From positions 73,948 through 137,947 of the forward strand of contig JBBTVD010000006.1 of assembly GCA_038063415.1 (NCBI GenBank): a DNA stretch of 64,000 bases, in the 5' to 3' direction. The notes beneath the pieces were generated by a model. That model was not told where the DNA came from, ran no database searches, and saw only the letters and a list, made by a program, of their open reading frames with translations. This DNA is from Patescibacteria group bacterium. GTDB taxonomy: Bacteria; Patescibacteriota; Microgenomatia; Levybacterales; UBA12049. This document shows, one piece after another, positions 2,416 to 54,100 of the stretch. The first letter of the stretch is position 1. Each line of letters starts with the position of its first letter. A program made the translations under genes and the position numbers.

Positions 2416-2649
2416 ATGATGACCAATATCATCGCAACTGATAATTCAAAAAATATACTTGTTCCCAAGATACTTTTAGAGAAGAGCGGCTTAAGCACTG
2501 ACGCAATCGTTCAGACAAAAAAAGGCGAAATTCGTATCATTTCTGCACGTAAACAAACTGTTACTGAAAATACACTCATATCCGAAAAAGCATTAGCAGC
2601 CGACTGGAACAGACCTGAAGAGGAGCAAGCATGGATACATTTGAAATAG
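2416..2649 (+). CDS. mazE: MazE/AbrB (SpoVT-AbrB)-type antitoxin
   Basis: 77 aa, small and acidic at the C-terminus. It lies directly upstream of a PemK/MazF toxin gene and overlaps it, the usual TA arrangement. Confidence 0.55.
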   Translation: MMTNIIATDNSKNILVPKILLEKSGLSTDAIVQTKKGEIRIISARKQTVTENTLISEKALAADWNRPEEEQAWIHLK

Positions 2650-2963
2650 GAGATATTGTTTTAGTCTTATTTCCTTTTTCAGATTTAAAAGGACAAAAAT
2701 TGCGTCCTGCACTCGTTTTGGCAAAAGCCGAATTTAATAACCTCATCCTCTGCCAAATAACTTCAAAATCTTATGCAAGTAAAACAGCAATTTCTCTTAC
2801 GCAAGTAGACTTTGTAGCAGGAGGACTCCCGATTAATAGCTTTATTCGTCCAGATAAAATTTTCACGGCAGAAGCATCGATTATCCAAAATCAAGCAGGT
2901 AAAATAAACTCGAAAAAGAAACACCTTGTTTTAGAGAGAATGCAAAAAATGTTCACTGTCTGA
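2631..2963 (+). CDS. mazF: MazF/PemK family endoribonuclease toxin
   Basis: 110 aa with the motif GDIVLVLFPFSDLKGQKLRPALVL characteristic of PemK/MazF. Its ATG overlaps the stop of the upstream antitoxin gene. Confidence 0.7.
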   Translation: MDTFEIGDIVLVLFPFSDLKGQKLRPALVLAKAEFNNLILCQITSKSYASKTAISLTQVDFVAGGLPINSFIRPDKIFTAEASIIQNQAGKINSKKKHLVLERMQKMFTV

Positions 2964-17954: not shown

Positions 17955-19064
17955 ATGTATACGAAAAATCTTACCGTTGGTGTTTTTACTCATGATTTCT
18001 TTCCCTTTATTGGAGGTCAAGGAAGACATATTTATCAAATGTATCAACAAAATCTATTACATAAAAAAACATCTATGGTTGTTTTTTCTCCTGCCAAAAA
18101 CTCATTACCAAATCATGTGCAACTCTTTCCGGAGACAGGAAGGAGTAAGCTTAAAAATATTGAATACTCATGGAAACTTAATAATATTTTTGAAAAATTG
18201 ATTGAGCAGTATAGGCTTGATTTAGTACACATTCATGGAGGACCGGGAGGGCTTTTCTTATTAAAAAAACTTTCAGTCCCTGTGGTATATACAACACATC
18301 ATACCTACTGGCAGCAATATAGCTATATTAGAACACAACGTTGGAAATACCTTTTATACGTTTTAGAAAAACAAAGCTATCGTTATGCTGACGAAATTAT
18401 TTGCGTCTCAACAGATACGCAACAAATACTCTCAAAATACTATCAAGTAGAAAAACCCTATCTGCATTATATCCCCAATGGTATTGAACAAAAAAATTCT
18501 ATTTTTGCAAATACCAACACGTATAAAAAAGCAAAAGATATCCTCTACGTTGGAAGGATAGACAAAAGAAAAGGTGTTGATTTTTTACTCAAAAGCATGG
18601 TTTCTGTTAATAAAATTGATCCAGATATTAGACTACATATTGTTGGAACAGGAAAAGACAAAGATGAACTTGAATACTTTAGTGTTCATTACAACTTACC
18701 GGTAACTTTTTATAATCATGTCTCTGACCAGGATTTGCAAAAAATTTATACAAAAGTCTCCGCACAGATCGTCCCTTCAATATTCGAAGGATTTGGCATT
18801 AGCATTCTTGAAGGGATGGCAAATGGGGTGCCTATTATAGCAACCAATGTTGATGGAATACGAAGTATTGTAAAACATAATTATTCGGGCATACTGGTCC
18901 CCTACAATGATCATGATGCGCTTGCCGACGCAATTGTTTATTTACTGGCAAATAGCAGTATTCAAAAGCAACTACTCACTAACGCGTATCGCGAGTTACC
19001 AAAATATAACTGGCAAAAAAGTTATTTCCAGACGGTACAGCTTTATGAAAAAATTATCCACTAA
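17955..19064 (+). CDS. GT4 (group 1) glycosyltransferase
   Basis: EGFGISILEGMANGVPIIATNVDG...SGILV motif. Confidence 0.75.
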   Translation: MYTKNLTVGVFTHDFFPFIGGQGRHIYQMYQQNLLHKKTSMVVFSPAKNSLPNHVQLFPETGRSKLKNIEYSWKLNNIFEKLIEQYRLDLVHIHGGPGGLFLLKKLSVPVVYTTHHTYWQQYSYIRTQRWKYLLYVLEKQSYRYADEIICVSTDTQQILSKYYQVEKPYLHYIPNGIEQKNSIFANTNTYKKAKDILYVGRIDKRKGVDFLLKSMVSVNKIDPDIRLHIVGTGKDKDELEYFSVHYNLPVTFYNHVSDQDLQKIYTKVSAQIVPSIFEGFGISILEGMANGVPIIATNVDGIRSIVKHNYSGILVPYNDHDALADAIVYLLANSSIQKQLLTNAYRELPKYNWQKSYFQTVQLYEKIIH

Positions 19065-20694
19065 ATCTATCTTGCAATTCATGCTGATAGTCCTTCTTCT
19101 TTGTTTTTTTGGTGTGCTCTATTCACAAACGACTCTTACACTACCATTATTTGGTGATGCTACCATCCATGGAGCAAATGCTATCGACGTACTTATAAAG
19201 GGGTGGACAGGGCTCGAAGCGGAATATCCAGCATTTTATTCATATACAATGGCATTATTCTATCCTTTTTTTGGAGAGAAAGGATTTAATATGATACCAT
19301 TTATTGGTTTCATCTTTTTATTAGGTGGCACTTTTCTTTTTATTCGACAGCTCACCAAAAATTATTACTTGGGACTTCTTTCTATTATCCTGGTTGGCTG
19401 TTCACCAAAAATTATTTTTTATAGTGCTCGTATGTATCAGGAGATACTCATTGGGGCTTTTTTTATTTTCTGCATTTATCTTTTGTTTCATTATGTAGAA
19501 ACAAAAAAAAGAATCTTTTTGATTTTACTCGCTTTTTTTGTTGGCATAACCTTATCAATAAAACAACAAGGTCTTTTTATCTTATATCCAACAATTATTC
19601 TTTTTTTTATCATCTACTTTTTAAAAGAAAAAATATTTCGCAAACAGATTGCAAATATTGCAATAATTATTCTTTTCCCTCTCGTAATCGGAATGGGATT
19701 TTATGGTGTACTCTTTCATACAACAGGAAAGTTGCAACCAGGAAGTAATGAATTTACTGCACTTGAAGTAATTAATACTTTCGGGCAAAAACTCTTTTCT
19801 TATCAAAAAAAAGATTCTGATACAGGGGATGAAACATTAGAAAGAGCCTTGATGACTGTAGAAACAAAATATAGCAAATTGGCCTTTAAACGTGCTGAAG
19901 AGAGACATATTTGGCCCACAGATGTCTTTACTGATTTTGATAGATTTAATCAAGCAAATAATCTGTATATCCCTTTTCAAGGCATCACGGGAAACATTTT
20001 TGTTACCCTTGCCTTATGCATAGGACTGATTGGAGGATTTATTTATTGTCTTTTTCACTACAAAAAGTATCAAGATTTACTTCTTTTTTCTTTTGTTTTT
20101 CTACCAATTAATTATCTCCTTTTTGTGAGAAATAGTGATCAACAACGTTATCATTTATTTGTCCCAATTTTTCTTCTTGCTTTCGTTTTAGTTTTTTTTC
20201 AAATTATTTTTCGCCGTCTCCATGTACCAATTACCACTACATTACTGATAACAATACCCCTTATGCTACTCCTTTTCCTTCCATTACTTGTCCCACGAAT
20301 ACTTCTTAATACCAGATGGAGTAATTCACAACTATACTCTCCAAGTGAAGGTGGTATTGCGTCAATAAAAGAAGCCGGGCAATGGATGCAAAAAAAGTCA
20401 AATCCTACAACAATAGTTGGACAACAATGTAATAATGAGACGCATTATTATTTCCAAAGACCTGTGGTTGGTGACTGGCGGATATACTTTCTTGATCCAA
20501 AAAATTTACAGACATATTTCATGAATAAAAATATTTCTTATTATGTTATCTATACCTCACAAATAGTAAAAGATAATGAATGGGTAATTATTTGTTGGGT
20601 GCCTGAAAGTTTTTATAAACGAATGGAAGAAAATTATGATCGTGTTTATACAACACAGAGTGAAGATGTGATCATTTATCAAGTACATCATTAG
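19045..20694 (+). CDS. Polytopic membrane protein, GT-C/ArnT-like glycosyltransferase candidate
   Basis: The ORF-track start at 18907 lies inside the preceding gene. The ATG at 19045 (MKKLSTKSILQFML, the first TM helix) is the likely start and overlaps the upstream stop by 20 nt. The protein has about 12 TM helices and a C-terminal soluble domain. Confidence 0.45.
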   Translation: MKKLSTKSILQFMLIVLLLCFFGVLYSQTTLTLPLFGDATIHGANAIDVLIKGWTGLEAEYPAFYSYTMALFYPFFGEKGFNMIPFIGFIFLLGGTFLFIRQLTKNYYLGLLSIILVGCSPKIIFYSARMYQEILIGAFFIFCIYLLFHYVETKKRIFLILLAFFVGITLSIKQQGLFILYPTIILFFIIYFLKEKIFRKQIANIAIIILFPLVIGMGFYGVLFHTTGKLQPGSNEFTALEVINTFGQKLFSYQKKDSDTGDETLERALMTVETKYSKLAFKRAEERHIWPTDVFTDFDRFNQANNLYIPFQGITGNIFVTLALCIGLIGGFIYCLFHYKKYQDLLLFSFVFLPINYLLFVRNSDQQRYHLFVPIFLLAFVLVFFQIIFRRLHVPITTTLLITIPLMLLLFLPLLVPRILLNTRWSNSQLYSPSEGGIASIKEAGQWMQKKSNPTTIVGQQCNNETHYYFQRPVVGDWRIYFLDPKNLQTYFMNKNISYYVIYTSQIVKDNEWVIICWVPESFYKRMEENYDRVYTTQSEDVIIYQVHH

Positions 20695-27148: not shown

Positions 27149-29530
27149 TTATACCTTGTATCTCTTCAATAATAAAGAATTAGTTACGACAGAAATAGAA
27201 CTGCTTGCCATAGCAATTGATGCAAAAATCGGATTCAACAAAATGCCAAAAAATGGATACAGCAGCCCCATCGCTACTGGAATTAAAATGATATTGTACC
27301 CAAAAGCCCAGAATAAATTGAGTCGTATCGTCCGCATTGTTTTTTTAGAAAGGGTGATTGCTTTGGCGACACTACGTAAGTCTTTATTGATAAGCGTTAT
27401 AGCAGCAGCTTCAATAGCAACATCAGTCCCTTTCCCCATGGCAATACCAATATCAGCTACGGCAAGTGCTGGCGCGTCATTGATGCCATCACCAACAAAA
27501 GCCACCAGCCCCTTGTCATTCCCGCGCAGGCGGGAATCTACTGTCATTAATTTTTTAACGATTTTCTCCTTTTCTTGTGGCAATACATCTGCATAGACCT
27601 GTGTAATCCCAACCTGTTTTGCAATTGCATCTGCCGTACGTTTATTGTCGCCTGTAACCATCGAGACCGCTATGCCCATCTGTTGTAATGCAGCAACACC
27701 AGCTTTTGCTGACTCTTTAACCGTATCAGCAACAGCAATCACACCGAGGATTCCTGGATCCCCACCTCCGCGGGAATGAAGAGAGGAGGCGAGCATCATG
27801 ACTGTCTTTCCTTCCGATTCGAGTCTCTGAATTTGTTGATCAACTGTCATTCTGGCTCGTCCAGAATCAGATCCTGGATGCGCTTCTCCTCCAGCTGGCG
27901 GAGCGTTTACCAGGATGACGTCAAGTGATATTTTCTCCATCTCCATCAATCGTCTATTCCCCAACAGTACTCGTTGTTTCTGAATTATTCCTGAGACACC
28001 CTTTCCTGCAATAGCTTCAAACCCCTCGACTTTTTCCAGAGAGATTTTCTCCTCCTCAGCTTTCTTCACAATCGCATCTGCCAATGCATGTTCTGACCCT
28101 TTTTCAAGAGATGCAGCAAGCCGTAGCATGTCATCCTGAACTTGTTTCAGGATCTTTTCTTTATGGATTCCCGCCTCCGCGGGAATGACAAAAGGGATAA
28201 TATCCGTCACCTCAGGCTTTCCATTCGTGAGAGTTCCCGTCTTATCAAAAACAACTGTTGTAATGTTATTTGCCAATTCCAGACTTTGCGCATCTTTGAT
28301 AAGAATCCCAAGCTCTGCACCTTTGCCAGTACCGACCATAATAGCTGTCGGTGTCGCAAGGCCCATCGCGCAAGGACAAGCAATGATAAGGACAGCAACC
28401 GTATTGAGCATGGCATAGAGGAAAGCAGGCTGCGGACCAAAAAGATACCAGATACCAAAGGTAGCAAATGCAAGCATAACCACGATGGGAACAAAATAAG
28501 AAGAAACGGTATCTGCCAGACGTTGAATTGGAGCCTTACTCCCCTGAGCCTCCTGAACAAGTTTAATAATTTGAGAAAGCACTGTCTCTGATCCTACTTT
28601 GGTTGCTGTATAGAGAAATGTTCCGTGTTTATTAAACGTCGCTCCGACAATCACATCACCTTTTTGTTTCTCAACAGGAATACTTTCTCCCGTAATCATT
28701 GATTCGTCAATCGAAGAGGTTCCTTCAAGAATCTCTCCATCAACGGGAATCTTCTCTCCTGGACGAACACGGAGTACATCCCCAACCTGTACCTGTTCAA
28801 TAGGGATATCAATCTCCTTACCATCTCGAAGTACCCTTGCTGTCTTTGCCTGTAATCCAATAAGCTTGGTAATCGCTTGAGAAGTTCCTGCTTTTGCCTT
28901 TGCCTCAATATATCTCCCAAGTAAAATAAGACCGATCACAATCGTCGCCACATCAAAATAGGGCATAATCTCAACACCTAATCCCATAAAAATCGTTGGG
29001 AAAAACGTAACAAAAGCAGAATACCCATAGGCAACGGTAGTACCCAATGCGACAAGGGTGTCCATATTGGATGTACGGTGTTTAAATGCGGAAAAAGCTG
29101 TTTGGTAAAATGCTGCTCCCGCCCAGAATTGTACGGGTGTTGCAAGAAGTAGCTGTAGCCAGAAATTTTGTAGAAATGCTGGAGCCGTCGTCATAAGTCC
29201 AGGGAAGCTCCCCCAAAGAATGAGACCCCCCAACACCAAACTCACAATAACTTTCGTTCGCAGCATGGCTAGTTCATTTTGCTTTTCTTTTGCTTGCATA
29301 TCCTCACTTTTTTCGGCAATCTCCATTGTATAGCCTGTTTTGGCAATGGCATCCGCAAGCTGTTCTGGAGTACAGGTATCGGTATTATACGTAATGGTTG
29401 CTTTTTCCGTCGCCAGATTAACGACCGCATCAGTTACACCTGGTGTCTTTTTCAATGCACGCTCAGTCACACGAATACACGAGGCACAATGCAGACCTTT
29501 GATTGGAAATGATTTTTTAACGTTAGTCAT
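27149..29530 (-). CDS. copA: Copper-translocating P1B-type ATPase carrying four in-frame hairpin-repeat insertions
   Basis: N-terminal HMA domain (GLHCASC), CPC (ACPCAMGL), DKTGTLT and [12 protein letters not shown] motifs are all present. The ORF is intact at 793 aa. The extra peptides [59 protein letters not shown] and [11 protein letters not shown] coincide with the repeat elements. Confidence 0.9.
27515..27539. repeat. GTCAT-hairpin repeat unit inside copA (gtcattcccgc-gcag-gcgggaatc)
   Basis: 7-bp stem with a 4-nt loop. In the copA frame it is translated as [11 protein letters not shown]. Confidence 0.7.
27748..27785. repeat. Degenerate GTCAT-hairpin repeat unit inside copA (...ccacctccgcgggaatga)
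   Basis: It shares the ctccgcgggaatga arm with the unit at 28166-28189. In the copA frame it is translated as [12 protein letters not shown]. Confidence 0.5.
27846..27919. repeat. Composite GTCAT-hairpin element inside copA (gtcattctggctcgtccagaatc + gatcctgg...ccaggatgac)
   Basis: The first unit is identical to 38265-38287. In the copA frame the whole element is translated as [28 protein letters not shown]. Confidence 0.7.
28130..28189. repeat. Two GTCAT-hairpin units inside copA (gtcatcctgaacttgtttcaggatc ... gattcccgcctccgcgggaatgac)
   Basis: The first unit differs by 1 nt from 38226-38250. In the copA frame the pair is translated as [19 protein letters not shown]. Confidence 0.7.
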
Positions 29531-29928
29531 ATTTTATTAACCTTTCTCCAACTCTTTATGAGTTCTTTCCAGTAGAAAACCCCAATAATTTCAAAGACAA
29601 TATTTGTTATAACTCCAGGATAATAGTTAAACGTTCTTATGGCATCAATCAAATGATGTAACTCGAAAATAAAGAAAATACCATACAGTGTTAATACCCT
29701 CAATGTCCATTTCCCGCCTAAGACAAGAAGAGCGACTGGTCCAATCATCAGAATCCATATTATGTGTGAAGAATAATATGTTGCTTGAGGGATTGTCTGA
29801 AACAAACTACTAAAATATAACATGATCCAATCATTATGGTAAAAACCAGAAATAATTTCTTCAAAGAAATGTAAATACACAACAATTATTGAAAAAATGA
29901 AAAGCCTTTTTAATTTTTTTGATAGCAT
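29527..29928 (-). CDS. HXXEE-motif small membrane protein
   Basis: The ATG at 29928 is preferred over the TTG at 29940. The protein has four TM helices and the motif YLHFFEEI. It overlaps the copA start by 4 nt. Confidence 0.4.
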
Positions 29929-29929
29929 A

Positions 29930-30295
29930 TTATTGAACAATTATCTTTCCATGAAACATATTCATGCCACAGGAAATTTCGTATGTACCCTCTTTTTCAG
30001 GCGTAACAGAGATTGCTATTGTCTTATGCAGAGGGAGATATTTTCGTATCTTAAAATCTGGCAGAACTACTTCTTCGAGGCACGAGCTTGGATCACGACG
30101 GATGAAGTTGAGGGTTGTCTGTTTCCCTTTTGGAATTGAAATGACATTGGGAGAATAACCTCCTTCAACGACAATATCGACACGCTTTGTTTTTACGACT
30201 ATCGCTGCTTCTTCTTTTTTCATCAAGAAGAACCAATAGGTAAAGACAATACCAGTGATACTAAATAGAGCGACGAATAATGTATCAAGTTGCAT
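29930..30295 (-). CDS. Membrane-anchored cupredoxin-like (Cupredoxin_1-type) protein
   Basis: 121 aa with an N-terminal TM helix and a beta-sandwich ending in EISCGMNMFHGKIIVQ. It is paralogous to the C-terminal domain of 26100-27134. Confidence 0.5.
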   Translation of the reverse strand: MQLDTLFVALFSITGIVFTYWFFLMKKEEAAIVVKTKRVDIVVEGGYSPNVISIPKGKQTTLNFIRRDPSSCLEEVVLPDFKIRKYLPLHKTIAISVTPEKEGTYEISCGMNMFHGKIIVQ

Positions 30296-30332: not shown

Positions 30333-30408
30333 GTCATTCCTGCGAAAGCAGGAATCCAGCTTGTTAAACTCTTTTTATTAGCTAGATCCCCGCATTCGCG
30401 AGGATGAC
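30333..30408. repeat. Two GTCAT-hairpin units in the DUF305/cupredoxin intergenic gap
   Basis: gtcattcctgcgaaagcaggaatc lies at 30333-30356 and gatccccgcattcgcgaggatgac at 30386-30408. Confidence 0.65.
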
Positions 30409-31027: not shown

Positions 31028-31300
31028 TCACCCCCTTTTCTTAAAAACCTGCATAATTTCCGTAATCGATTCATCAGCTTTTCCTTTTGTAATCGATTCA
31101 GCGACACACCCTTTGAGATGGTTTTCAAGAAGGACATTCCCTGTTTCCTTGAGTCCACTTTCAACTGCTTGCATTTGATGGAGAACATCGATACAGTATG
31201 CATCAGCTTCAACCATAGAGATCACTTTATCTAAATGTCCCCGGGCAATTTTGAGTCGATGGAGTATCCTCTCTTGTGTATTTTTTGGTCTATATGTCAT
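31028..31300 (-). CDS. csoR: CsoR/RcnR family metal-sensing transcriptional repressor
   Basis: 90 aa with the motifs RLKIARGHLDKVISMVE, YCIDVLHQ and HLKGCV matching the Cys-His-Cys Cu(I) ligand pattern of CsoR. Confidence 0.7.
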   Translation of the reverse strand: MTYRPKNTQERILHRLKIARGHLDKVISMVEADAYCIDVLHQMQAVESGLKETGNVLLENHLKGCVAESITKGKADESITEIMQVFKKRG

Positions 31301-31346
31301 ATCCCCCCTATAGGGATATTATGGAACTAGTCACAGAAGTTGTCAA
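31299..31346 (-). promoter_or_regulatory. csoR-operon promoter (TTGACA-N17-CATAAT) with a candidate CsoR operator palindrome ATATCCC-N7-GGGATAT immediately downstream
   Basis: On the minus strand, the -35 element lies at 31341-31346 and the -10 at 31318-31323. A perfect 7-bp inverted repeat lies at 31299-31319 and spans the RBS and start codon of csoR. CsoR operators are GC-cored pseudo-palindromes. Confidence 0.45.
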
Positions 31347-38225: not shown

Positions 38226-38322
38226 GTCATCCTGAACTCGTTTCAGGATCTTTTTTTAGAATTCGTCATTCTGGCTCGTCCAGAATCTTATATTTATCAT
38301 GCTGAAATAAATTCAGCATGAC
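38226..38322. repeat. Three GTCAT-hairpin units between serS start and rpsT end
   Basis: The three units are gtcatcctgaactcgtttcaggatc, gtcattctggctcgtccagaatc and atcatgctgaaataaattcagcatgac. Confidence 0.7.
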
Positions 38323-45061: not shown

Positions 45062-45130
45062 GTCATTCTGGCCGAGTCCAGAATCCGTTTCGCTTAAGAT
45101 CCTGGATGCGCTGCTGCTTATCAGGATGAC
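45062..45130. repeat. Two GTCAT-hairpin units between convergent genes (surface protein / DinB-like)
   Basis: The two units are gtcattctggccgagtccagaatc (a loop variant of the 27846/38265 unit) and gatcctggatgcgctgctgcttatcaggatgac. Confidence 0.65.
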
Positions 45131-49267: not shown

Positions 49268-49924
49268 TTACATCACTTCTTTTCTCCCCACTTCTTTTGC
49301 TTTCTCTCTAAAAAAACTCTTAAGCTCTTCCAATGACAGTGGCTTAATCATCTTGGGTAGATAGACAAAGTCCTCTACCTTCAAAAAATCTGCTGACAAA
49401 AGAAATGGCTCAAGCTTTACTTTAAATTTTATTCGTACTCCTTCAATTAAATCCCATATACTGAATTTCTGTAAAAGAAAATACAGATCAACAAAATCCT
49501 TCACTTCATCTCGCTGTGTAATGGTCAATAATTTATTTACTGCAATATCGGTAAGGCTATCAACTTTTACTCCATCGAGAAGTTGTCCTTTCTCTAATCG
49601 AGTATAAGGATAATAAGCAAAATCAACTTTGAGTTCGTTCTTATTGGAAAATACCAGTTGATAGATATACATTACTTCAACAAACTGTGATTGAAACTGA
49701 AACTGCTGTTTGTTGCTCCACTCAGTCATGAGGGTAAAGAGTATCTGATTATCAAATTTCTTCTCGCTAAAAAGATCAATATCATCTGATTCTCGATGAT
49801 GCAGATAAACCGCGCTTAACGCAGTACCTCCGGTGAAATAAAAGTTTTCTTTACAAAAAGCGTTTTCTTTTACTTCATCCAGAATGATTTGTTGTTCTTT
49901 GGTGAGGTCTGGTATTTCCCCCAT
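49268..49924 (-). CDS. AbiEii/AbiGii-family nucleotidyltransferase toxin (DUF1814)
   Basis: 218 aa with N-terminal FYFTGGTALSAVYLHHRESDDIDLF, matching the GGTAL...R.S.DIDLF signature of AbiEii toxins. Confidence 0.6.
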   Translation of the reverse strand: MGEIPDLTKEQQIILDEVKENAFCKENFYFTGGTALSAVYLHHRESDDIDLFSEKKFDNQILFTLMTEWSNKQQFQFQSQFVEVMYIYQLVFSNKNELKVDFAYYPYTRLEKGQLLDGVKVDSLTDIAVNKLLTITQRDEVKDFVDLYFLLQKFSIWDLIEGVRIKFKVKLEPFLLSADFLKVEDFVYLPKMIKPLSLEELKSFFREKAKEVGRKEVM

Positions 49925-51189: not shown

Positions 51190-54100
51190 CTAGGCAGCAA
51201 CAACTGCTTCAGCTGCACGTGTTTCTTCTTGACCTTCTTCAACAAATTCACCAGTCATTCCAGCAACTGGAATAAGTCGTCCGATAATAACATTTTCTTT
51301 GAGACCGATCAGTTTATCTTCACGTGCTTCAAGCGCTGCTTCGGTTAAGACTTTGGTTGTTTCCTGGAAGGATGCTGCTGACAACCAAGAGTCTGAGAAC
51401 AGAGCTGCTTTGGTAATACCAAGGACTACTTGTCGGCCAGTTGCTGGCTCTCCACCTTCAGCGAGCACCTCGCCATTCATCTCTTCAAATCGAGCTTTGG
51501 TTACAAAATCTCCTGGGATAAGTGAGGTGTCACCAACACTCTCAACGATAACCTTGTCAGACATCTTTCGAGTAATAACTTCAAAATGCTTATCATTAAT
51601 ACCAATACCCTGTGATTCATATACTCTCTGTACTTCAGTGATCAGATAGCGCTGTGCCATTGGGATACCACCGACTTTGAGTACTTCCTTTGGATCAAGA
51701 TCACCTTCTGCAAGTGGTGTTCCAGCGATCACTTCATCACCATCAGCAACGGTCAGGGTCATAGACAGTGGGACAAAGTATTCCTGTGTATCAATTGGTT
51801 TGATTCGAGTGTTTTTGATTTGTACATGGTGACCATCCTCGTTTGTTTCAACGGTTACTTTACCAGTAATTTCAGCAATTGGTGTCAAATTCTTTGGTGT
51901 ACGCATTTCAAAGAGTTCCTCAACACGTGGAAGACCTTGGGTCACGTCAGACATAACGATACCTCCATAGTGCTTCACCTTCATGGTCAGCTGTGTTCCT
52001 GGTTCACCAATACTTTGCGCAGCCATAACACCGACTGGAACACCTTTACCGATTAATTGCTTGGTTGAGAAGTCCCATCCATAACAGGCGGCACACAGTC
52101 CGTAAGAAAGCTTACAGGTAAGTGCTGATCGTACCACTGCTTCCTCAACTTCATGTTCGTCAAAGAGTTTTGCTTCTTCTTCACTGATTTCAGTTCCAGC
52201 CTTCAAGATAACTTTCTTGGTTTTCTTTGAAACAACATCTGCTCCAAGCACACGACCAAGAACTCTTTCTGACAAAGCCGCAGTTCTGTTCTTTTCGGTA
52301 TGATACATGGTTATGCCATCGGTTGTACCACAATCATCTTCCCGGATAATCACTTCATGAGCCACATCAACCAAACGTCGAGTTAAGTATCCTGCGTTTG
52401 CTGTTTTCAAAGCTGAATCGGTCAAACCTTTTCGTGAACCACGGGCTGATGACACGTATTCAAAGATTGAAAGACCTTCACGGAAGTTAGATTTAATTGG
52501 TAACTCAACGATCTTTCCGGTTGGATCAACGATAAGACCACGGATAGCTGAAAGCTGTTTGAGCTGTTCGAGACCTGCACGAGAACCTCCAGAATCAATA
52601 CTGATTTTGATAGGATTGTGCTTTTCAAGAGCCTTCCAGGTAAGATCACCAACAACATCCGTTACTTTCATCCAAACTTCATTTGAAAGTCTTTTCTTTT
52701 CGTTAATGGTAATCAAACCATTCTGATAGTCACTGTCGATCTTGGCAACCTTTACTTCGGCTTCAGCAACATATTTTTGTTTCTCAGGGATAATGTCGTT
52801 GTCAAAAGCAGCGACACTCACACCAGAAATGGTTGCACCCTTAAATCCAAGATTCTTAATGCGGTCAATAAGAGCTGCAACTTCATCAGATGAGTACATC
52901 TTCATAGCCCGCATAATAAGCTTTTTGATACCACCCGCATTGACACTCTCGTTAATAAAGCCATATGATTCAGGAAGGAGTTCATTGAATTTCAATCGAC
53001 CAGCACTTGTTTCAACAAGCTTTGCCTCTTTATCACCATAGGCTGTCAGGCGAACCTGGATTGTTTCTTGCAGTTGAATCTTACCAAGGTCATAGGCAAG
53101 GAGTGCTGCGTTTTTGTTTTCAAAGTATGCTTGTTCTTCTGCTGGCTTAACCAATCTCTCATCAAGTGATGTCAAGAAGAATGAACCAAGTGCCATTTCT
53201 TTGTTTGGCAAGGTGATTGGATCTCCGTTTGCAGGTTTGAGCAAGTTATGGTTAGGCATCATAAGCGCAATTGCTTCTTCTTGTGCTTTCTTAGAAAGTG
53301 GAATATGCACAGCCATTTGATCACCGTCAAAGTCAGCGTTATAACCGGCACAGACACAAGGGTGAAGCTGAATCGCAGCACCTTCAATAAGGACTGGATA
53401 GAATGCCTGAATACCAAGTTTATGAAGCGTAGGAGCACGGTTTAGAAGAACCGGATGATTCTTGGTAATTTCTTCAAGGATATCAAAAACCTCTGGTGGA
53501 CGCTTCTCGATATATCGTTTTGCTGACTTAATATTGGTAGCAAGGCCACGAACGATTACTTCACGAAGAATAAACGGCTTAAACATTTCAAGTGCCATTT
53601 CTTTTGGTAATCCACACTGGTTCAGTTCAAGATCAGGTCCAACAACGATAACAGAACGACCGGAGTAATCAACACGTTTTCCAAGCAAATTCTGTCGGAA
53701 TCGACCTTGTTTTCCACGAAGCATGTCTGAGAGAGATCGAAGCTGTGCCGCACTTTGACTTGTTCGCTGTGATGAATCAATAAGTGCGTCGACTGATTCC
53801 TGGAGCATTCTCTTCTCGTTTCGAAGAATGATTTCAGGTGCACCAAGTGCAAGCAAATGCTTCAAACGATTGTTTCGGTTAATCACACGGCGATACAAAT
53901 CGTTCAAATCTGACGTTGCAAATCGTCCTCCTGAAAGCTGAACCATCGGACGAAGATCTGGTGGAATAACAGGAAGTACGGTCATAATCATCGCAGATGG
54001 TGATACTCCTGCTTTGCGCATGAATTCGATCAATCGAAGTCTTTTCACAATCTTTAAGTAGCGCTGTCCAGTTGCTTTTTCTGATTCGGTACGAAGATCA

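Follow-up and report, generated by a model that had tools for sequence, protein, structure and literature searches.

In-frame CGTC-tagged palindromic repeats in predicted cytoplasmic loops of a Patescibacteria CopA copper ATPase

The stretch of DNA analyzed here (the window) comprises 64,000 nucleotides of contig JBBTVD010000006.1 from a Patescibacteria group bacterium. Its copA gene (27149-29530, minus strand), assigned by motifs and CopA homology to the Cu(I)-exporting P1B-type ATPases, contains several copies of a short tagged hairpin repeat within its coding sequence. As reported in a preliminary description of the locus, the gene is a single intact open reading frame (ORF) of 793 amino acids, uninterrupted along its whole length. 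The protein matched A. fulgidus CopA (3J09) with E = 6e-188, and an identical protein is on record (P0001) from a metagenome-assembled genome (MAG) named 'Patescibacteria group bacterium'. Analysis of the protein revealed the P1B-1 motifs HMA C15-xx-C18, TGE (residue 280), CPC (385), DKTGT (429), MVTGD (624), TGDN and GDGIND (680), in agreement with the earlier statement that the catalytic motifs are intact. The transmembrane motifs YN(x4)P (Y745-N746...P751) and M(xx)SS (M774-xx-S777-S778) were also kept, as were all residues that are invariant in the clade. The N-domain motif was SEHA, compared with SEHS in the clade consensus, and not SEHP; an 'HP' at residue 551 falls within the second of the inserts described below and does not represent the catalytic SEHP motif.

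The gene belongs to a copper-resistance operon encoding a DUF305 protein, a cupredoxin, an HXXEE protein, CopA and a DsbD-cupredoxin protein. It had been described as an essential-type gene; copA is instead an accessory gene for copper resistance, and this may explain why it tolerates inserts. Situated between the genes for the cupredoxin and CopA, the gene for the HXXEE-domain membrane protein (137 amino acids; 29527-29940, minus strand) shares a few bases with each neighbor; most related loci have no gene at this place.

Compared with its homologues, the window CopA contains four extra peptide segments, at amino acids 449-467, 538-565, 583-594 and 663-673 (28130-28186, 27836-27919, 27749-27784 and 27512-27544 in the window, respectively). 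In a HMMER alignment, A. fulgidus CopA (3J09/3J08) was gapped opposite these segments by 14, 23, 8 and 9 residues. The excess over the 740-amino-acid core of the 119 closest homologues was +13, +24, +8 and +8, or 53 amino acids in all, and the four extra segments of the preliminary description are thus real. Their lengths had been given as 57, 84, 36 and 33 nt; these are multiples of three, as claimed, but include native codons, and the net gains at sites 1 to 4 were 39, 72, 24 and 24 nt. The boundaries of the repeat units, and the native codons between them, were visible in codon alignments with relatives. The segments had no intein-like boundaries and measured 8-24 amino acids, versus at least about 130 for an intein. 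A scan of the window against Rfam gave no match, and a tRNA scan likewise returned nothing.

The DNA of each segment is made up of one or two GTCAT-tagged hairpins, giving six units at the four sites. Site 1 consists of two separate single units, GTCATTCCCGCGGAGGCGGGAATC and a reverse-oriented GTCATCCTGAACTTGTTTCAGGATC, which flank four native codons. The first, site 1a (28166-28189, minus strand), is a canonical 24-nt unit of the type known as CGTC-1 (see below), GTC-ATTCCCGC-GGAG-GCGGGAAT-C, with its tag first in the mRNA sense, and encodes VIPAEAGI (amino acids 448-455). The native codons CAT AAA GAA AAG (HKEK; 28154-28165, minus strand) were identified by codon alignment with relatives P0006 and P0014 and correspond to GGA AAA GAA AAA (GKEK) in insert-free alleles. 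The second, site 1b (28130-28154, plus strand), is a 25-nt unit, GTC-ATCCTGAA-CTTG(T)-TTCAGGAT-C, with its tag last in the mRNA sense; it encodes ILKQVQDD (amino acids 460-467) and is one loop base apart from an intergenic unit at 38226. Site 2 is an inverted dimer with a net insert of 72 nt, in which the outward-facing tags form terminal inverted repeats (GTCATYCTGG). Its A unit (site 2a; 27870-27919, minus strand), GTC-ATCCTGG followed by a 30-nt loop containing the CCAGCTGG palindrome and then CCAGGAT-C, encodes a 17-amino-acid peptide. Its B unit (site 2b; 27846-27868, plus strand), GTC-ATTCTGG-CTCGT-CCAGAAT-C, encodes DSGRARM and, read in reverse as GTCATTCTGGCTCGTCCAGAATC, is identical to an intergenic unit at 38265. 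Intergenic DNA at 45062-45130 holds the A+B dimer too, as does a second copA site of relative P0005. Site 3 (27757-27780, minus strand) is a decayed CGTC-1 unit with the tag CTTC and the stem ATTCCCGC/GTGGGGAT, including two G.U positions in the mRNA; it is read in frame +2 as (L)HSRGGGD, shares 84% identity with site 1a over 32 nt, and folded no better than shuffled sequences (z = +0.4). Site 4 (27515-27538, plus strand) is again a canonical 24-nt CGTC-1 unit, GTC-ATTCCCGC-GCAG-GCGGGAAT-C, with its tag last in the mRNA sense, and encodes DSRLRGND (amino acids 665-672). The claim that each segment is a copy of an intergenic hairpin repeat is borne out by identical and near-identical units, with the corrections that the unit at site 3 is degenerate and that site 1 is two units around native codons.

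These features match a described class of repeats. CGTC-tagged repetitive extragenic palindromes (REPs) have a terminal CGTC, often TGTC or CCTC, and an 8-9 bp stem whose first pairs are almost always A-T; the loop measures 4 nt in family 1 and 5 nt in families 2-4, and the short tail has the consensus CCA (Di Nocera, De Gregorio and Rocco 2013, BMC Genomics 14:522; PMC3733652). They are multicopy, lie mainly in intergenic DNA between unidirectional or convergent ORFs, often as inverted dimers, and have no known dedicated transposase; their intragenic copies have no known function (PMC3733652). In the same survey, family CGTC-1 corresponds to Neisseria dRS3 and the Rickettsia palindromic element RPE-6, and CGTC-4 to RPE-4 (PMC3733652). 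The general form of the window units was (C/T)GTC, a 7-8 bp stem starting with AT, a 4-6 nt loop, a second arm ending in AT, and C. Among the 14 units compiled, the tag was TGTC in eight, CGTC in five and CTTC in one (site 3). All stems were of the AT...AT type and 7-8 bp long, and 11 were perfect. The ATTCCCGC-type units had loops of 4 nt, and units of the ATCCTGAA and ATTCTGG types had loops of 5-6 nt; two long-loop variants, with 30 and about 19 nt, exceed the canonical CGTC range. The tails started with C and matched the CCA consensus in part (three cases each of CCA and CTT, two of CTA, and single cases of CAG, CT, CCG and CTTAA), and two atypical units ended in TAT and GAT. The encoded peptides also agreed: those of sites 1a, 4 and 3 match the R. 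conorii CGTC-1 peptides VIPAKAGI, DSRFRGND and CHSRESGNP, which are listed with SFPRKRES in Additional file 3 of PMC3733652. Identity with the RPE-6/dRS3 core was judged via these peptides. On the evidence of tag, stem, loop, dimers and peptides, with the tail as the sole weak point, the window units are, by sequence, CGTC-tagged REPs, the class that includes Rickettsia RPE-6 and RPE-4 and Neisseria dRS3. The resemblance to Rickettsia palindromic elements noted earlier is thus closer than was claimed.

The units nevertheless differ from the surveyed CGTC-1 repeats in several respects. They share with these the tag, the 8-bp AT-start stem, the 4-5 nt loop, a tail of one or a few bases, inverted dimers, mainly intergenic copies 3' of ORFs and occasional in-frame copies, but their tails are C followed by variable bases instead of CCA, and 7-bp stems and long loops (30-60 nt) coexist with the canonical form. 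The survey covered five phyla, mostly Alphaproteobacteria (PMC3733652), whereas the host here is a Patescibacteria (Microgenomates-like) MAG. In-frame intragenic copies reached their highest number in R. conorii; no gene had more than two sites, and dimers encoded 20-30 amino acids (PMC3733652). The window copA has four sites and six units in one gene, in support of the earlier remark that the density is unusual.

Similarities to three other groups of elements were also considered. The RPE-1 repeats are said, in a Science report of 2000 by Ogata et al., to lie in frame within genes and to be translated at surface positions compatible with the protein fold. The window units likewise are palindromic repeats in frame within a coding gene, but RPE-1 measures about 100-150 bp and has another sequence, compared with 23-25 nt for the single units and 60-90 nt for the dimers found here. 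GTAG REPs and bacterial interspersed mosaic elements, which RAYT (IS200/IS605-like Y1) transposases mobilize, are similar in that they are short tagged hairpins that form inverted dimers, favor intergenic DNA and have some intragenic copies; here the tag is (C/T)GTC, and no Y1 transposase was found in the 64-kb window. [quoted passage not shown] MITEs measure 100-400 bp and have target-site duplications, whereas the copA sites are without visible duplication.

Copies of the repeat also occupy intergenic DNA of the window. An inverted dimer of CGTC-1 units (30333-30408; units at 30333-30356, plus strand, and 30385-30408, minus strand; fold z = -5.4) is placed between the genes for the DUF305 protein and the cupredoxin in the copper operon that contains copA. 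A three-unit cluster (38226-38322; units at 38226 and 38265, plus strand, and 38298-38322, minus strand; fold z = -4.6) sits between rpsT and serS, and a B+A dimer lies between convergent genes at 45062-45130 (45062-45085, plus strand, with a long-loop unit at 45096-45130, minus strand). A probable further unit, GTC-ATATCCC-loop-GGGATAT (31296-31320, plus strand), is atypical in stem composition and uncertain in its membership. All four intergenic loci of the 64 kb surveyed are 3' of an ORF, between unidirectional or convergent genes, and three are dimers or clusters. The occurrence of these hairpins is not random, as no chance matches were expected for the strict pattern TCCCGCNNNNGCGGGAAT, and 11 perfect GTCAT hairpins were observed compared with 0.075 expected. 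Their density was 1.7 per kb in copA and 0.9 per kb in intergenic DNA, and the remaining 55 kb of coding sequence was at shuffle background. GTCAT hairpins within other window genes (6369, 35103, 51254 and 51758) were set aside as probable chance look-alikes. One of these, GTCATTCCAGCAACTGGAAT at 51254-51273 (plus strand), is hairpin-like and encodes IPVAGMT near the 3' end of a 1262-amino-acid ORF, probably rpoC by its synteny with S12/S7; it was judged to be due to chance.

The distribution of inserts was also examined in relatives. The 119 closest homologues, from Levybacteria, Daviesbacteria and other Microgenomates-type MAGs, were 67-73% identical to the window CopA. Alleles without insertions, for which the preliminary description had proposed a search, accounted for about 80% of the 120 closest homologues, and all solved CopA structures compared were likewise insert-free. 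Insertions of at least 11 amino acids at site 1 were found in at least 19 of the 120 alleles. Many alleles carry insertions at the sites used in the window gene and, following RDGK in the A domain, at a fifth one, so that the occupied loops of the clade are one in the A domain, three in the N domain and one in the P domain. The inserted peptides of these relatives (VILSKRSEAEDL, VIARSETTKQS, SPRHSERSEES, DSGQARMT and VIPAKAGIQ) are encoded by other members of the same family of tagged hairpins. The window gene is not the extreme case; P0005 (843 amino acids, Levybacteria) has five occupied sites. In codon alignments with nine relatives, the forward-spacer-reverse layout and the frame of site 1 were alike in five alleles with different stems, and the site-2 dimer was common to four alleles. 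From these alignments, some inserts appear to be shared and others independent. Independent gains were not reliably countable, since the sequences are about 70-76% identical, the neighbor-joining (NJ) tree was near-star and poorly resolved, and regional nearest neighbors disagreed. In six close relatives the units were found almost only in copA. A preference for copA is clear in the window lineage and only suggested beyond it.

Several further features of the relatives' copA genes were noted. An ILKQVQDD-type unit (GATCCTGAAACAAGTTCAGGATGAC) was present at site 2 of P0017, P0023, P0065 and P0104, at site 4 of P0003, P0078 and P0081, and in the copA of locus L088. In those homologues it adds a net length of +1 or +2 amino acids and looks substituted rather than added (for example KTVTEQ to KQVQDD); such replacements fit either insertion plus deletion or conversion of a partly similar native sequence. 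Palindromes without the GTCAT tag and simple repeats occurred in CopA loops (sites 0, 3 and 4) of L021, L025, L072, L002 and L048, among them GACCTGCCTGCCGGCAGGCAG (DLPAGRQ), CGACAAGCTCAGGGTAAA (RQAQGK), PSRVGEPRRR and an AT-rich 'LEIGNWKLEIGN' tandem repeat. A small 23S_rRNA_IVP (bAvd-like) gene lies immediately upstream of a heavily colonized copA in L003 (2615-2974) and L004 (295-645). Twelve loci in which tblastn matches about 1.2 kb over the gene length had raised the suspicion of a large copA insertion proved to have a copZ-like HMA gene downstream, to which the N-terminal domain aligned. Many of the GTDB loci L007-L086, which encode this Microgenomates-type CopA, are automatically labeled 'uncultured Gammaproteobacteria bacterium' or 'Candidatus Saccharibacteria', labels that probably do not reflect their true taxonomy.

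The inserts had also been proposed to be selected for preservation of the reading frame. This analysis revealed that little special selection is needed, because the canonical unit is 24 nt (eight codons) long and stop-free in five of its six frames, the sixth having a TGA from the ATGAC tag. The 25-nt variant has three open frames and the 23-nt variant five, and neither copA nor its homologues read the units in any frame but an open one. Most of the frame preservation therefore stems from the element itself and the rest from survivorship; it is not evidence of special selection.

The positions of the inserts in the protein were analyzed with an AlphaFold2 model built from a 120-sequence alignment (mean predicted local distance difference test score (pLDDT) 74). 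In this model, site 1a is coil just before the first N-domain helix, which site 1b extends at its N terminus. Site 2 is unstructured coil, and its residues 543-559 have pLDDT < 50. Strands 575-582 and 593-604 form a beta-hairpin with site 3 at its turn, and the coil of site 4 (669-674) connects helix 651-668 to the strand ahead of GDGIND. All four sites would thus be in cytoplasmic loops of the N and P domains, as had been anticipated, with the helix extension at unit 1b; this is consistent with tolerated loop expansions.

Taken together, we consider it likely that CGTC-type REP units have inserted into tolerant loops of copA and that read-through makes them part of the protein. Six units would have entered the gene at four N/P-domain loop positions and would be transcribed and translated with copA, yielding short loop expansions. 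They could persist through the 24-nt unit with its five stop-free frames and through positions between secondary-structure elements of a tolerant accessory transporter, while the same family populates intergenic DNA 3' of ORFs, as REPs usually do. Recurrence at five loops would then arise most likely because only insertions at these loops survive selection. A reading in which the segments are not insertions at all, but loops native to the lineage, artefacts of assembly or signs that the gene is a pseudogene, is highly improbable. Equivalent segments at the same positions in homologues from unrelated lineages had been named as a finding that would speak for it, and related alleles do carry segments there; yet most of the clade and all solved structures compared lack them, on which ground the segments are still read as insertions. 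Moreover, their DNA equals intergenic repeats elsewhere in the window, the ORF is uninterrupted with catalytic motifs and clade-invariant residues in place, and independent NCBI, JGI, ENA and Logan assemblies gave the same architecture; 24-nt units are also, in our judgment, too short for mis-assembly. Several observations do weigh against insertion followed by passive read-through. No transposase was found among the 50 ORFs of the window, including none matching Y1/RAYT (PF01797-type), and we infer the mobility of the units from their dispersal only, for this reason. Their tolerance and the translation of the segments are likewise points that we infer. In a DNA scan of 80 GTDB loci, enrichment in copA over other coding sequence was not significant (5 hits versus about 4 expected at background), in a set that is biased because two of the six peptide patterns used for the locus search overlap inserts. 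Finally, in no core region are the four alleles with the site-2 dimer mutually closest, and they are not monophyletic on core sequence. Simple neutral hitch-hiking does not, as judged from the sequences, explain how well the arms of this dimer are conserved.

This conservation bears on a more active role of the hairpins. Across the four alleles the arms and tags of the site-2 dimer were 94-96% identical, compared with 58-67% for the 30 nt on each side and 44-50% for third codon positions over 738 core codons, where synonymous sites are near saturation. The only change in the arms was a compensatory pair in P0005 (ATC..GGAT to ATT..GAAT), and the loops varied from 39 to 69 nt by indels that were all multiples of three. 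Constraint on the protein is unlikely at this site, because the encoded peptide is modeled as disordered; selection on the hairpin would give such a pattern, as would repeated re-copying by gene conversion or re-insertion. The loop of the window B unit, CTCGT, equals that of its own intergenic copy at 38265 and differs from the orthologues (CTTGT in two, CTTGA in one), and relatives retain the layout and frame of site 1 with different stems; both observations speak for a more active role. Active maintenance of the hairpins at defined copA positions, whether by site-directed re-copying (gene conversion or homing from other copies in the genome) or by selection on RNA or DNA structure, for instance as mRNA stabilizers, pause sites at domain boundaries or protein-binding sites in DNA or RNA, is nonetheless a tentative proposal that we regard as rather unlikely. 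Not all copies are maintained, given the decay of the site-3 unit and the loss of its fold; the sample amounts to four alleles and one compensatory pair; and the units are oriented 3 to 3 relative to transcription. G.U outnumbered A.C sense-strand mismatches by 9 to 3, a difference that was not significant and is confounded by forced 8-bp stems and non-independent copies, and intragenic CGTC REPs have no known function, as cited above. It is doubtful, too, that recurrence at the same loops reflects a target-site preference of the insertion machinery in addition to a filter by selection. Alleles dispersed across the NJ tree do have different hairpin subtypes at identical codon positions, most of the empty sites are Gly-Lys turns encoded by GGA-AAA-type codons, and P0005 carries the A+B dimer at two loops of one gene. 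Against this, the intergenic flanks in the window have no GGAAAA-like motif, unrelated palindromes and simple repeats also occur at these loops, as would be expected of generally indel-tolerant turns, and the scatter is seen on the poorly resolved tree described above. In addition, neither a pre-existing tag (GTC/GAC) nor a target-site duplication was seen at the empty sites examined in insert-free alleles. Insertion into tolerant loops with read-through, filtered by selection, remains our preferred explanation.

Other features of the window outside copA were also recorded. The ORFs of a GT4 glycosyltransferase (17955-19064, plus strand) and a PMT_2-like membrane protein (18907-20694, plus strand) overlap by 158 nt, which could be due to an overcalled start codon or a frameshift. 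A MazF/PemK-like toxin-type gene (2631-2963, plus strand) lies amid purine-biosynthesis genes, and an AbiEii nucleotidyltransferase toxin gene (49268-49924, minus strand) adjoins the rpsG-rpsL-rpoC-rpoB block.

CGTC REPs in frame within genes were already known, and the window copA is a dense example of this phenomenon in a new phylum. No description of CGTC-type repeats in Patescibacteria or the candidate phyla radiation (CPR) was found in the literature searched, including the RepRanger paper. What is new is the identification of Patescibacteria as a host of in-frame CGTC-type repeats, which extends the class to the CPR, together with their density (four sites and six units, and five sites in a relative), their recurrence in the same loops, and arms that are far better conserved than the flanking codons. 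Such repeats inflate and diversify the predicted proteins of CPR MAGs, and recurrent strings such as DSGQARMT may mislead homology searches, clustering and annotation. The conservation of the arms amid coding sequence that evolves fast gives a hint that the repeats may be more than inert, and bears on how CGTC REPs spread without a known transposase. If active maintenance were true, Patescibacteria, with their small genomes, would be tractable for comparative work on the propagation of CGTC REPs.

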